Part shown: piece by piece, positions 36,869 to 41,970 of the stretch | Position numbering within the stretch: position 1 is the first letter of the stretch | Layout: each line of letters begins with the position of its first letter | Assembly: GCA_963752285.1 (NCBI GenBank) | Contig: CAVVXN010000002.1 | Location: forward strand, 320,001-384,000 | Reading direction: 5' to 3' | Length of the DNA: 64,000 bases | DNA from: an uncultured Planctomycetota bacterium | Lineage (GTDB): Bacteria; Planctomycetota; PLA2; JAEUHO01 | The notes under the pieces: model-generated | The model's input: only the letters and a program-made list of their open reading frames with translations | Told to the model about the DNA's origin: nothing | Databases searched by the model: none | Position numbers and translations under genes: made by a program

Positions 36869-37327
36869 GTGGCGGACGACGCGATCGACCTGCCGGTGGA
36901 GGTCCTCCCGCACGGTCGCGGGCTGGAGCTGCCGAGCTACGCCACGGCGGGCGCGGCGGGGATGGACCTCCGCGCGGCGGTCGAGGCGCCGCTCGAGCTC
37001 GTGCCCGGCGCGCGCGCGCTCGTCCCCACGGGCCTCCGGATCGCGGTCCCGCCGGGCTTCGAGGCGCAGGTGCGCGCGCGGAGCGGCTGGGCGCTCCAGA
37101 GCGGCGTGGTGCTCCCGAACGCGCCGGGGACGATCGACGCCGACTACCGCGGCGAGGTCCAGGTGATCCTCATGAACCTCGGATCGGAGCCCGTCCGCGT
37201 GGAGCGGGGCCAGCGCATCGCGCAGCTCGTCCTGGCCCCCGTGGCCCGCGCGCGCCTCCGGCCCCGGGAGGGGCTCGGAGACACCGCGCGGGGCGCGGGC
37301 GGGTTCGGGCACACGGGGGACCGCTGA
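36869..37327 (+). CDS. dut: dUTP diphosphatase
   Basis: [33 protein letters not shown]. Confidence 0.96.
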
Positions 37328-37342
37328 GCGTGGTCCCGCGGG

Positions 37343-37963
37343 TCAGCGGGCGTCGCTGGAGGACGACGACGTCGTCGTCGCGTGGTTCCGGGACGCGGGC
37401 CGCGCCGTCGTGTGGGTCTCGGTGCGGCGGCTGGCGATCGTGTGGTGCGCCGCCTGCGCCTGGGCGAAGCCCGCGCGCCGCACGGCTTCGACGAGCCGGG
37501 TCACCGTCGCCCTCCGCGCGTCGAAGTCGACGCGCGCGAGGGACGTGCTCTCGACGGCGATCCTGCGGACGCCCGGCACAAGGCCGAGCGCCGCGCGCAC
37601 GCGCGTGCTCGCGTTCTCGGGTCGCATGTCCACCTCGATGGCCAGGCTGCGTACCGGGATCACGGACGCCCCGTAGCCCAACGCGTGCACGGCGTACTCG
37701 AGCTGGGCGTCGGACGCCGTCCCGCGCGAGCGGACCACGACGGCCTCGTTCTTGAGTCGATCCACGTTGGCGTAGAGAACGCCGCGCACACGGCGCAGCG
37801 CCGCGGTCACCTCGACCGCGCACGGGCCTCACCCCATCCCGCTGAGCTCGAGCACCACCCTCTCGTTCGTGATCGGGTGCGTGCTGGTTCCCGCGCGCGC
37901 CGTGCCCGCGAGCGAGACGGCGACGAGGGCGGTGAACGTCGAGATCCAGGCCATGCGATTCAC
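37343..37963 (-). CDS. Probable exported selenoprotein with two HMA (MerP/CopZ-like) domains; in-frame UGA at 37829-37831 read as Sec (GMG-U-GP-C)
   Basis: GGAGG SD, GTG start, signal peptide (..SLAGTARA), ERVVLELSGMG*GPCAVEVTAALRRVRGV; TGA sits at the first Cys of the GMxCxxC motif; second HMA-like domain lacks Cys. Confidence 0.75.
37802..37820 (-). promoter_or_regulatory. Bacterial SECIS-like stem-loop
   Basis: mRNA CGCGGUC-GAGGU-GACCGCG: perfect 7-bp stem, 5-nt loop starting with G at the 16th nt after UGA. Confidence 0.6.
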
Positions 37964-38260
37964 GGGGATCCTCCCGGAAGCGAGTTGCAAAGGTCGGGAC
38001 GGTACGACCCGTCGCCTCCTCGACGACGGGAAAAACCGGCCCCGCGGGAAGAATTCCCCACGTTTCCGTCCCTGCGTCCCGTGCCTGAATCGTTCCTTCG
38101 TACACGGAATCTGAAGAACCAGTCGGCACGCCGGTGCTCGAATCGCTACGGAGGCGTGATTCGTGCGCCTCGCGTGCCGCGCCGCATCCGGAGGCGCGGC
38201 GCCGGCGGGCCGGTCGTCCCGCCCGACGGCGGCGCGCGAACCGGGGCCATCGCCCCCGGG

Positions 38261-39273
38261 CTATACGGCGTCGGCGGACGGGGGTGCGGCGGACGACGTC
38301 GCGGAGGACGTCGGGCGGCGGAGGACGCGGCGCGGGGGCGCGGCGGGCGCGGCGGCGGGCGGTACGTCCGGGAGCTCCCGCGGGGGGGCGGGCGGGACGG
38401 CCGACGCCGTGCGCAGGAGGACCCGTCCCGGCGGGTCCCACGTGAGCGCGAGCACGAGCGGGAACACGGAGAGCGAGACGAGGAGCATGAAGCCCGCGAC
38501 GCTCTCGAGCGGGACGCCCAGCACGTCGTGCGCGACGCGCGCGTAGTCGTTCGTCAGCCCGAACGACCCGCTCTGCATGTACCACGCGCGCGCCGACGAG
38601 GTGAACGCGAGCCCGCCGGCCAGCGCCACGTTTCGTGCGACGAGGAACCACCCCAGGCACGCGTAGAGCGGACGTTCGGACTCGTGCTCCACCGCGTCGC
38701 CGGTACGGGCGCGCGCGAGGAACACGCCGGCGAACACGAGCTCGCCCAGGTGGCCCGAGAGCAGGAAGCCGAGCTGGCGCGCCGTCGGGAGGAACGCGAA
38801 GAGCGGCCACGCGGCGAGGAGCCCGATCGCGAGCCCGAAGAACCTCTTCGTGCGCCAGGCGAGGACCACGCCCGTCACCAGGATCGCCGCCACGAGCACG
38901 AGGATCGTGACGCTCTGCGGACGGTGGAACGCCGCGGCGTGTCCCCGGAGGCTGATGACGGGCCAGGCGGCGGCGCCCGCGTACCACGAGAACGCGACGT
39001 GTCCGGTCTCGTGGAAGAGCGAGCCGAGCAGCCAGCCCATGAGGCGGAGCCACGGCGCCATCGTGAAGAGGCTCGCCAGGGCCGCGCCCAGGGCCAGCCA
39101 CGGCCAGCCGACGTCCACCCGCCTCGGGGCGCGGACCGACCCGGGACGCCCGGCACGAGGCGCGCGCGGCGGGGGCCGGACGCGGGGGGCGCCACCCGGA
39201 GCTCCCCGCAGAGGCCGCACGTGGGACGGTCGTCGGGGTTGGGGTAACCGCAGCGGACGCAGGAGTAGCCCAT
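38261..39273 (-). CDS. Zinc-ribbon + M50-like (HExxH) membrane protein; reading frame broken near 39120-39190
   Basis: MGYSCVRCGYPNPDDRPTCGLCG (CxxC-CxxC) in one frame; multi-TM domain with HETGH, SGHLGEL, LTNDY in the adjacent frame. Confidence 0.65.
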
Positions 39274-40085: not shown

Positions 40086-40511
40086 GTGGCGCGTCCCGCC
40101 TACCGCCTCCTCGACCACACCGCGGACCTGGCCTTCGAGGTCCAGGCGGAGAGCTGGCCCCGGCTCCTCGAAGCGGCGACCGCCGCGCTCGGCGACGTCA
40201 TCCTCGCCGAGACGGGGGACGCGCGCCGCGAGGCGCGCCCGCTCGACGTGCAGGGCGACGACCGCGAGGACGTCCTCGTGGCCTGGCTGGGCGAGATCGT
40301 CGCCCTCCTCGACGAGTGCGGCTGGCTCACGCGCGCGGCGAGGGTCGAGCGCGCGGAGGCGGGCCGCGCGACCGGCGTCCTCCTCGGCCGGTCGCTCGGG
40401 GACGCCGAGCCCGTGGATCGCGTGGTGAAGGCGGTCACGTATCACGACCTCTGCGTCCACGAGGGCGAGGGCCGCCGACCGTGGCGCGTGGCCGTGGTGC
40501 TGGACCTGTGA
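40086..40511 (+). CDS. Archease
   Basis: YRLLDHTADL, VKAVTYHDL, C-terminal VVLDL; immediately upstream of rtcB. Confidence 0.93.
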   Translation: MARPAYRLLDHTADLAFEVQAESWPRLLEAATAALGDVILAETGDARREARPLDVQGDDREDVLVAWLGEIVALLDECGWLTRAARVERAEAGRATGVLLGRSLGDAEPVDRVVKAVTYHDLCVHEGEGRRPWRVAVVLDL

Positions 40512-40518
40512 GGAGGGG

Positions 40519-41970
40519 GTGCCCATGTCGCCCGAGTCCCCGCCGGCCGTGGAACGCGTGGACCGGTTCCGGTGGCGGATCCCGCGTAGCGGGGCGATGC
40601 GGACGGAGGGTCTCGTCTTCGCCACCGAGAGCCTGCTCCGGACGATGCAGGGCGAGCGGGCCCTCGAGCAGGTCCGAAACGTCGCGTGCCTGCCGGGGAT
40701 CGTCGGGCCGAGCCTCGGCATGCCCGACCTCCACTGGGGCTACGGCTTCGCGATCGGCGGCGTCGCGGCGTTCGACCCGGACGAGGGCGTGATCAGCCCG
40801 GGCGGCGTCGGCTACGACATCAACTGCGGGGTACGGCTGCTCCGGACCGACCTGGACGCGGCGTCGGTCGGCGGCCGGCTCGACGCGCTCGCCGACGCGC
40901 TCGTCGACGAGGTCCCCTGCGGCGTGGGCGCGGCGCAAGAGGACCTCCACCTCACGGGGCGCGAGATGGACGCCTGTCTCGCCGACGGGGCGGCGTGGGC
41001 CGTCCGGCGCGGGCTCGGCGTGCCCGAAGACCTCGAGCACGCCGAGGAGAACGGGCGCCTCGAGGGCGCGCGACCCGACGAGGTATCCGACCGTGCGAAG
41101 CGCCGCGGCGCGCGACAGCTCGGGACGCTCGGTTCCGGCAACCACTTCCTCGAGGTGGACCGCGTGGCGGAGGTCGAAGACGCCGAGGCGGCCCGTGCGC
41201 TCGGGTTGGTCGAGGGGCAGGTCGCCGTGCTCGTCCACTCGGGCAGCCGCGGCCTCGGCCACCAGGTGTGTACGGACCACCTGCCGACGATGAAACGGTC
41301 CGCAGAGAGGCACGGCATCGTGCTCCCCGACCCGCAGCTCGCGTGCGCGCCCTTCCGCTCGCCGGAGGCCGAGCACTACCTCGGCGCGATGCGCGCGGCC
41401 GTGAACTTTGCGTTCGCGAACCGGCAGGCGATCGCGGCGGGCGTGCGGCGCGCGTTCGACCGCGTGTTCGGGGCGGCCGGCGTCCTCGCGCAGGTCTACG
41501 ACGTGTGCCACAACATCGCGAAGGTCGAACGGCACGTCGTCGGCGGCCGCGAACGAGACCTCGTCGTGCACCGCAAGGGCGCGACGCGCGCGTTCCCTCC
41601 GGGGCACCCGCTCACGCCGGTCGCGTACCGGGCGGTGGGGCAGCCGGTGATGGTCCCGGGCGACATGGGCCGGTACTCGTTCGTGCTCGTCGGCACCGAG
41701 GGGGCGTGGAGGGAGACGTTTGGCTCCTCGTGCCACGGCGCGGGCCGCCTCCAGAGCCGCACGCGCGCGCGGAGGGAGACGCGGGACCAGGACGTGCGCG
41801 GCGACCTCGAACGACGCGGGATCCGCGTCCGCGCCGCGAGCCGCCGCACGATCGACGAGGAGCACCCCGGCGCCTACAAGGACGTCGCGGAGGTGGTGGC
41901 GGTGGTGGAGGGCGCCGGGCTCGCGCGTCGGGTCGCGCGCCTCGAGCCGATGGCGGTCGTGAAGGGCTGA
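40519..41970 (+). CDS. rtcB: RtcB RNA 2',3'-cyclic phosphate ligase (archaeal/eukaryotic-type)
   Basis: MPDLHWGYGFAIGG, GYDINCG, GSGNHFLE, HSGSRG, HNIAK, HRKGAT, SCHGAGR, YKDV. Confidence 0.96.
   Translation: MPMSPESPPAVERVDRFRWRIPRSGAMRTEGLVFATESLLRTMQGERALEQVRNVACLPGIVGPSLGMPDLHWGYGFAIGGVAAFDPDEGVISPGGVGYDINCGVRLLRTDLDAASVGGRLDALADALVDEVPCGVGAAQEDLHLTGREMDACLADGAAWAVRRGLGVPEDLEHAEENGRLEGARPDEVSDRAKRRGARQLGTLGSGNHFLEVDRVAEVEDAEAARALGLVEGQVAVLVHSGSRGLGHQVCTDHLPTMKRSAERHGIVLPDPQLACAPFRSPEAEHYLGAMRAAVNFAFANRQAIAAGVRRAFDRVFGAAGVLAQVYDVCHNIAKVERHVVGGRERDLVVHRKGATRAFPPGHPLTPVAYRAVGQPVMVPGDMGRYSFVLVGTEGAWRETFGSSCHGAGRLQSRTRARRETRDQDVRGDLERRGIRVRAASRRTIDEEHPGAYKDVAEVVAVVEGAGLARRVARLEPMAVVKG

Follow-up and report, generated by a model that had tools for sequence, protein, structure and literature searches.

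Does an in-frame TGA end a short protein, or does it encode selenocysteine (Sec, written U) within a longer one? This question is raised by a gene on the minus strand of a 64,000-nucleotide stretch of DNA (the window; positions 320,001 to 384,000 of contig CAVVXN010000002.1, assembly GCA_963752285.1) from an uncultured Planctomycetota bacterium, whose genome, G000, is of the metagenome-assembled type and 89% complete. The default open reading frame (ORF) starts at a GTG at 37810 and yields 155 residues, and the same frame remains open further upstream, interrupted by a single TGA, to a GTG at 37963 that is preceded by GGAGG; read with TGA as U, it gives a 206-residue product that stops at the TGA at 37343-37345. 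An earlier reading made from the letters of the window (the sequence-only reading) had described this frame, and the sequence and its translation confirm it. We conclude with high confidence that the gene encodes a selenoprotein of two heavy-metal-associated (HMA) domains, predicted to be exported and likely with a soft-metal role. Three features define the problem:

37343..37963, minus strand: predicted selenoprotein gene, complete, GTG start, 206 residues (sequence, ORFs and translation with TGA as U).
37343..37810, minus strand: truncated 155-residue ORF of the gene callers, with its GTG start within the loop of an RNA hairpin described below (ORF list).
37829..37831, minus strand: UGA codon 45, probably read as Sec, at the first position of the G-M-x-C-x-x-C metal motif (conserved column and alignment).

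The TGA is conserved. A six-frame search of 61 related genomes returned a match with one internal TGA in six further genomes (G009, G011, G001, G022, G027 and G013; E-values 6.5e-39 to 2.2e-14), and a search for related loci with a four-sequence alignment added a single new member, the metagenome contig L039. In a codon alignment the TGA occupies one shared column in 8/8 orthologous sequences (seven species genomes including G000, and L039), and protein identity across the TGA-containing orthologs is 28-50%. The motif, which in G000 lies within ERVVLELSGMG-U-GPCAVEVTAAL, reads GMGUGPC, GMGUGPC, GLTUGPC, GVTUGSC, GVTUVSC and DLTUVVC in the six further genomes and GMGUGPC in L039; the U column and the Cys three residues on are invariant in 7/7 genome copies, all of which have two HMA domains. 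Three other loci were set aside as non-members (L040, L041 and L045: ordinary CxxC HMA or unrelated stretches), and the TGAs found in G016, G316 and G350 are terminal stop codons rather than internal ones.

Conservation on this scale bears on the simplest alternative, namely that the gene is a pseudogene with a nonsense mutation or that the TGA arose as an error of assembly. Genes most commonly decay through a single in-frame stop, and a metagenome-assembled genome that is 89% complete invites such suspicion; the comparative data contradict it, however, for the same TGA stands in different species and assemblies, contigs from three other public runs cover it in pieces with no difference listed there, and both halves of the gene are under purifying selection. 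We regard this alternative as very improbable. No sequencing run contained at least half of the stretch's sampled words, and no RNA run was among those listed as containing them.

Coding constraint extends across the TGA. The G+C content at third codon positions (GC3) is 0.95 upstream and 0.94 downstream of it; over the 12 codons that precede it, nonsynonymous divergence (pN) in the five closest sequences is 0.22 vs. a synonymous divergence (pS) of 0.58; upstream of the TGA, four synonymous and no nonsynonymous changes separate G011 from L039, the closest pair; and the HMA profile and the structure model both span the TGA, needing residues on either side of it. These observations weigh against the view that the TGA is a real stop, which would leave a 44-residue peptide and a separate 155-residue protein from GTG 37810, or that it is passed by near-cognate read-through as Trp or Cys. 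Gene callers and public databases give exactly this split, and the stability of the hairpin is unexceptional for the local composition, but the 155-residue product would be without strand β1, the metal loop and the signal peptide, and the HMA model is confident only as a whole; moreover, GTG 37810 falls within the hairpin loop, the TGA column has been kept over the above range of protein identity with its flanks under purifying selection, and the genome contains Sec machinery and other Sec genes. We consider a real stop or near-cognate read-through improbable and judge, from the sequence evidence, that the internal TGA is very probably decoded as Sec.

The read-through product has, in order, a signal-peptide-like N-terminus, HMA domain 1, a Cys-less HMA domain 2 and a tail. 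Its overall architecture recurs in the orthologs of G009, G011, G001, G022, G027, G013 and the metagenome locus L039. Its parts are as follows:

37970..37974, minus strand: Shine-Dalgarno-like GGAGG, 6 nt ahead of the GTG start (direct sequence reading).
37892..37963, minus strand: predicted Sec-type signal peptide, residues 1-24, ending SLAGTARA/G (sequence features only).
37655..37867, minus strand: HMA domain 1, residues 33-103, with U45-x-x-C48 (Pfam stretch 38-97, AlphaFold, Foldseek).
37454..37654, minus strand: HMA domain 2, residues 104-170, with DMRPENAS in place of CxxC (second Pfam stretch, AlphaFold).
37346..37453, minus strand: low-complexity, predicted disordered C-terminal tail rich in Thr, Ser, Arg and Ala, residues 171-206 (predicted local distance difference test score, pLDDT, 50-59).

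The GTG at 37963 is the probable start codon, and a GGAG/GGGAG-like motif stands ahead of the chosen start in 5/6 orthologs. The N-terminus, MNRMAWISTFTALVAVSLAGTARA/G, has the basic N-region, hydrophobic core and A-x-A of a signal peptide; a signal-peptide-like N-terminus with n-, h- and c-regions and A-x-A occurs in 7/7 genome copies, and residues 1-28 are disordered in the AlphaFold model (pLDDT <50). The long C-terminal tail is found only in G000 and G009, and its sequence is without conservation.

The fold is that of HMA proteins. Pfam HMA (PF00403) matches in two stretches with 48.7 bits (cut-off 24.8), and AlphaFold2, run with the seven-sequence alignment, gave a mean pLDDT of 81, with values >90 over residues 33-170, and two domains, each β-α-β-β-α-β. 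Foldseek matched the tandem domains of Bacillus subtilis CopA (2RML, 7.9e-10) and gave a probability of 1.00 to MerP, CopZ and CopA domains; single-domain matches were MerP (1OSD, root-mean-square deviation (rmsd) 1.0 Å over 70 residues) and also CopZ. The sequence-only reading had placed the TGA exactly at the first Cys of the HMA motif GMxCxxC, and phmmer alignments bear this out, pairing residue 45 with the leading Cys of GMTCxxC of both ATP7B and B. subtilis CopA. Domain 1 has the ligand pair U45-x-x-C48 in the position of the β1-α1 loop; domain 2 of G000, as had been noticed, has the HMA fold and no Cys at its site, and so no ligands. This second site is CxxC in four of the seven genomes (G011, G022, G027 and G013) and in L039; the CxxC is gone in G000, G009, G001 and the database cluster P0044 and kept in most relatives.

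Bacterial Sec insertion requires an RNA element, the Sec insertion sequence (SECIS), and the hairpin proposed for this role in the sequence-only reading, including a first loop G that is the 16th base after the UGA, is present:

37802..37820, minus strand: putative bacterial SECIS hairpin, 7-bp stem CGCGGUC/GACCGCG, loop GAGGU, 8 nt past the UGA, at +12 to +30 (folding and comparative).
37780..37800, minus strand: candidate second hairpin directly after the first, region GCGCUGCG/UGCGCGGC (predicted here and in G009, G011 and G001).

Comparison of orthologs shows constraint at this place beyond that on the peptide. In the five closest sequences, synonymous divergence falls to a pS of 0.16 over codons +1 to +10 and 0.22 over codons +11 to +18, vs. 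0.58 immediately before the UGA and 0.50-0.56 over the remainder of the gene; with all eight sequences, pS over codons +1 to +10 is 0.31 vs. 0.52-0.59 elsewhere. This dip in synonymous rate is the strongest result for an RNA element, and both it and the conservation of the TGA column exceed chance. In keeping with constraint at the RNA level, a contig from another run is identical to the window over exactly 37778-37848 and divergent outside. Stem pairing was examined in the seven-sequence alignment, with partners slid by 1-3 columns as a control: 85.7% of the cells of the 7-bp stem are paired, vs. 33-63% with slid partners; two stem pairs show changes on both sides (GUC/GAC to GCC/GGC), which alter two amino acids as well; and the observed stem values were reached by 7-11 of 500 shuffles. 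For a negative control, ordinary Cys codons within HMA motifs of the retrieved loci were scored for their best simple hairpin at that same offset downstream: best-hairpin energies have a median of -11.9 kcal/mol at the eight Sec sites vs. -4.6 kcal/mol at 24 Cys-codon sites with local G+C of at least 0.62, and the Sec sites differ from the Cys-codon control sites with a Mann-Whitney p of 0.003. In the region of the second hairpin, pS is 0.22 for the five closest sequences but rises to 0.52 when all eight are compared, and this hairpin stays a candidate RNA element because it overlaps the highly conserved peptide AALRRVRGV. Scans of 37100-38400 for promoter and terminator patterns found none.

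The genome has the means to insert Sec. It encodes tRNA-Sec (70 bits, cut-off 47; SeC with anticodon tca according to ARAGORN), selA (507 bits), selB (317 bits) and selD (356 bits), all above curated cut-offs; in the family to which it belongs, 27 of 29 genomes have selA (26 above the cut-off; the G022 copy is cut at a contig end). When G000 was scanned for in-frame TGAs flanked on either side by coding signal, 94 candidates emerged, mostly plain gene ends, from which nine were chosen by eye for redox-like motifs and seven of these were run against Pfam. Four of the seven are AhpC/TSA-Redoxin genes with the TGA at the catalytic Cys:

G000 C5:1821334-1822389, plus strand: AhpC/TSA-Redoxin Sec candidate (Pfam).
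G000 C5:251406-252300, minus strand: AhpC/TSA-Redoxin Sec candidate (Pfam).
G000 C5:1051088-1051700, minus strand: AhpC/TSA-Redoxin Sec candidate (Pfam).
G000 C4:141218-141800, minus strand: AhpC/TSA-Redoxin Sec candidate (Pfam).

Their motifs are WUGPC, TUVPC, WUPWC and TPGUT, and all four combine a signal-peptide-like N-terminus with a hairpin 12-20 nt downstream of the TGA. Given the Sec machinery and these other genes with TGA at a Cys position, we take it that this organism makes regular use of Sec decoding. The other Sec genes of G000 have stems of 6-8 bp, located 12-20 nt past the UGA, and a small loop that mostly starts with G; the hairpin of the HMA gene sits at the near end of their offset range.

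Further Sec candidates were seen in G000 during this survey. Its selD is itself a selenoprotein gene, with an in-frame TGA at GAGGUAAKL (G000:C1:736073-736999, plus strand), and lies directly after selA (C1:734626-736002). Three further candidate loci are G000:C5:65200-66058 (plus strand), with a sub-threshold Thioredoxin_7 match (26.9 bits, cut-off 27; NVUGSC), C4:47508-48530 (plus strand), with no Pfam family (HATUSYC), and C5:1450316-1450684 (minus strand), with DUF5049 (CARU, a CxxU motif).

Several observations weigh against our interpretation. The stability of the hairpin alone does not set it apart: the 56-nt fold has a z of -0.83, and 38 of 200 shuffles fold equally well, as is to be expected with a local G+C of about 72%. 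Moreover, 4 of 39 Cys-codon HMA sites are followed at a similar offset by a hairpin that reaches or surpasses -10 kcal/mol; since the eight sequences are related, the p of 0.003 and the shuffle counts (7-11 of 500) overstate the support; the hairpin of G013 is weak at this offset, where RNAfold prefers a longer stem that includes the UGA; and the loop of the HMA-gene hairpin starts nearer the UGA than do the loops of the other G000 Sec genes. A search of 37300-38300 with 4227 Rfam families (E up to 10) gave no SECIS-type match, which we attribute to the lack of a suitable model and do not count as evidence. Homologs were expected to carry TGA or Cys at the Sec column, and TGA stands there in 8/8 orthologs and Cys in ATP7B, CopA and MerP-type domains, but among the relatives examined there is no close ortholog with Cys, and P0047, the nearest full-length relative without the TGA (177 residues), has neither U nor C. 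Lastly, the gene lies among housekeeping genes (dUTPase, in convergent orientation, AnmK, DeoC, archease and RtcB) and a Na/Ca exchanger, so that genomic context lends no functional support.

Set against these points are the findings on which the sequence-only reading had said that it would stand or fall, namely a sequencing error at the TGA, a genome without SelABCD, and homologs not conserved upstream of the TGA. The TGA recurs in seven independent species genomes and a metagenome contig; selA, selB, tRNA-Sec and selD all exceed curated cut-offs; and purifying selection acts on the codons before the TGA. The reading of an exported Sec-HMA selenoprotein is supported.

We infer Sec insertion itself, export, the bound metal and any partner, and propose the following course. 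Translation would start at GTG 37963; the hairpin 8 nt past the UGA would recruit SelB and Sec-tRNA(Sec), and Sec would be inserted at UGA 37831-37829; and termination would take place at the next TGA, 37345-37343, which is without such a hairpin. The Sec-type signal peptide would direct export, with cleavage probably after Ala24, and the selenolate/thiolate pair U45-x-x-C48 of domain 1 would bind a soft metal in its loop. In the same loop of CopZ, MerP and P-type ATPase domains, two cysteines bind Cu(I), Hg(II) and similar soft metals. Judging by its fold, its motif and what is established about HMA proteins, the protein most likely binds a soft metal with high affinity, or hands one over, outside the cytoplasm. 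There is no metal-related operon and there are no mer genes in the neighbourhood of the HMA gene; G000, within its 89% completeness, has no MerT match and no MerA above the cut-off, and it has a copper P1B-ATPase (605 bits). Given that no mer genes were found and that the copper ATPase is present, a copper or general soft-metal role is probably to be preferred over a MerP-like mercury shuttle, and a redox role ranks second.

In that redox alternative the protein is likewise a selenoprotein, but U-x-x-C would form the selenylsulfide centre of an envelope oxidoreductase and the Cys-less domain 2 would serve as a docking module. Most UxxC/CxxU selenoproteins are thiol-oxidoreductase-like, as stated in a 2026 review (PMC13188914). 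Every other selenoprotein found in G000 is a redox enzyme whose N-terminus resembles a signal peptide, the CxxC of domain 2 can be lost from proteins that retain the Sec site, and no metal-resistance genes lie nearby. The fold and motif, however, are those of a metal-binding HMA domain and not of thioredoxin, the closest curated families all consist of metal chaperones or transport proteins, and we know of no enzymatic redox role of an HMA domain; a redox centre is possible but unlikely.

Two sets of neighbouring genes were noted in passing. Archease is directly followed by the RNA ligase RtcB at window 40086-41970 (plus strand; Pfam 87.7 and 557.9 bits), an ordinary pairing. Upstream of the HMA gene and on the same strand, a membrane protein with HExxH (FHETGH; window 38264-39121, minus strand) is kept at that place in G000, G009 and G001 (~60% identity); it has no Pfam family and a weak lead to M50B-like metallopeptidases (ESM Atlas 0.94; PF13398 on 15% of one cluster's members).

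The family is narrow: it is found in 7 of 40 genomes of the order, all from one family, within which six of the 28 genomes besides G000 have it, and in none of 11 genomes of the sister family. No further ortholog outside the family was found among 401 sampled genomes of the phylum, the matches there being HMA domains of P-type ATPases. A subfamily of tandem-HMA proteins without the Cys of domain 1 (G007, G024, G021, G016, G020 and one G012 copy) was considered as the Cys form and rejected because it has neither U nor C at the site. These are paralogous exported tandem-HMA proteins of the same genome family (L052, L056, L057, L058, L063 and L036 in G007, G024, G021, G016, G020 and G012, respectively); their domain 1 contains neither Cys nor Sec, their domain 2 has a conserved L-H-C-x-x-C, and G022 has both a Sec-type and a Sec-less paralog.

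Since Sec is never replaced by Cys in any close relative seen and the all-sulfur second site is dispensable, one may speculate that one Planctomycetota lineage depends on selenium for soft-metal handling in its envelope, the selenolate of domain 1 being an obligatory ligand or redox-active centre. We hold this idea tentatively and think it rather doubtful. If true, it would offer a natural test case for Sec outperforming Cys at a metal site in an oxidising compartment.

Standard annotation misses the gene, as had been anticipated: public entries hold forms cut after the TGA and named as CopZ or HMA proteins. A word-index search returned three proteins only, all shortened (155, 152 and 121 residues). 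The identical 155-residue protein is P0002 in public collections, and the sources call such proteins 'copper chaperone CopZ' or 'heavy-metal-associated domain-containing protein [Planctomycetota bacterium]' (MFV1958679.1, 155 residues). An exhaustive profile search returned mostly multi-HMA proteins, along with about ten clusters that start near profile position 55, just past the TGA (P0027, P0034, P0036, P0044, P0095, P0114, P0115, P0118, P0003 and P0004). P0017 (JGI) is full-length (179 residues) and has W at the critical column (GMTWVGC), probably where a gene caller read TGA as Trp.

These findings matter in three respects. The gene in the window and about ten metagenome protein clusters are stored as fragments that begin after the TGA, and a family model would correct such entries. 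A small, soluble two-domain protein, predicted to be exported, that always retains its Sec site but can do without its Cys site would be convenient for measuring the contribution of selenium to the binding of Cu(I) and Hg(II). Our analysis also adds evidence that a high-GC Planctomycetota lineage has a sizeable selenoproteome overlooked by standard gene calling.

The sequence-only reading described Sec-HMA proteins as predicted but barely characterised, and the 2026 review PMC13188914 agrees. None of the selenoprotein families that its Table 1 gives as experimentally verified is a Sec-containing HMA protein, and the words HMA, PF00403, Planctomycet, periplasm and signal peptide occur nowhere in the review. 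Among the selenoprotein candidates in Table S9 of the Planctomycetes genome study PMC4807772, 'heavy metal', HMA, copper and mercur do not appear. A full-text literature search for Sec together with HMA terms found no paper.

Among known systems, the closest is the NCBIfam family NF041115 (UxxU_metal_bind), an HMA-fold protein with Sec at the first metal-ligand position. It is the best NCBIfam match for five of the seven orthologs and the second-best for G027 and G011, with scores of 60.1, 78.5, 78.7, 77.7, 76.1, 78.1 and 90.3 bits, all under the 95-bit cut-off, and none of the seven proteins reaches any curated NCBIfam cut-off; NF041115 differs in that it comprises one domain only, about 74 residues long, in which Sec occurs twice (UxxU), whereas the proteins described here have UxxC, two domains and a predicted signal peptide. 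NF045683 (MerT_CopZ_Se, a MerT/CopZ fusion-like heavy metal transport selenoprotein) likewise combines Sec with a CopZ/HMA-like module, but it is fused to a MerT membrane part that our proteins are without, and scores are 39.6-66.1 bits vs. a cut-off of 375. P-type ATPases with UxxC also have Sec at the first Cys of the HMA CxxC motif; their HMA domain, however, is the cytoplasmic N-terminal part of a membrane pump, whereas the protein described here is a free-standing tandem-HMA protein, predicted to be exported, without the ATPase part. MerP (TIGR02052; PDB 1AFI and 1OSD) is an exported HMA protein too and resembles it in its signal peptide and its loop of GMxCxxC type (rmsd 1.0 Å over 70 residues, 31-37% identity), and differs in having Cys rather than Sec, a single domain and a gene in the mer operon (53.5 bits here vs. 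a cut-off of 92.55). The two consecutive domains of B. subtilis CopA (2RML, 1P6T) and the N-terminal HMA domains of ATP7B are the best two-domain matches in Foldseek and phmmer, but they are cytoplasmic pump parts that carry CxxC in each domain and have neither Sec nor a signal peptide.

A protein from another Planctomycetota family was seen alongside these: L074 (G391:C116:39318-42821, minus strand, about locus 1441-2016) encodes an exported tandem-HMA protein with an in-frame TGA in both domains, with the motifs GMQ-U-RVN-C and GMQ-U-GVS-C (U-x-x-x-C spacing), a best NCBIfam score of 68.7 bits vs. 95, and a selA of 501 bits in G391; it is possible that this is a double selenoprotein. Should the proposed dependence on selenium be true, our family and this two-TGA protein together would suggest that exported HMA proteins have recruited Sec in place of Cys more than once. 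Selenoproteins in which Sec replaces the first Cys of an HMA motif are a known, catalogued and recurrent kind; the Planctomycetota family, which is absent from the curated lists checked, has by its sequence an architecture of its own, in which a tandem-HMA protein, predicted to be exported, keeps its Sec site while its Cys site is optional.

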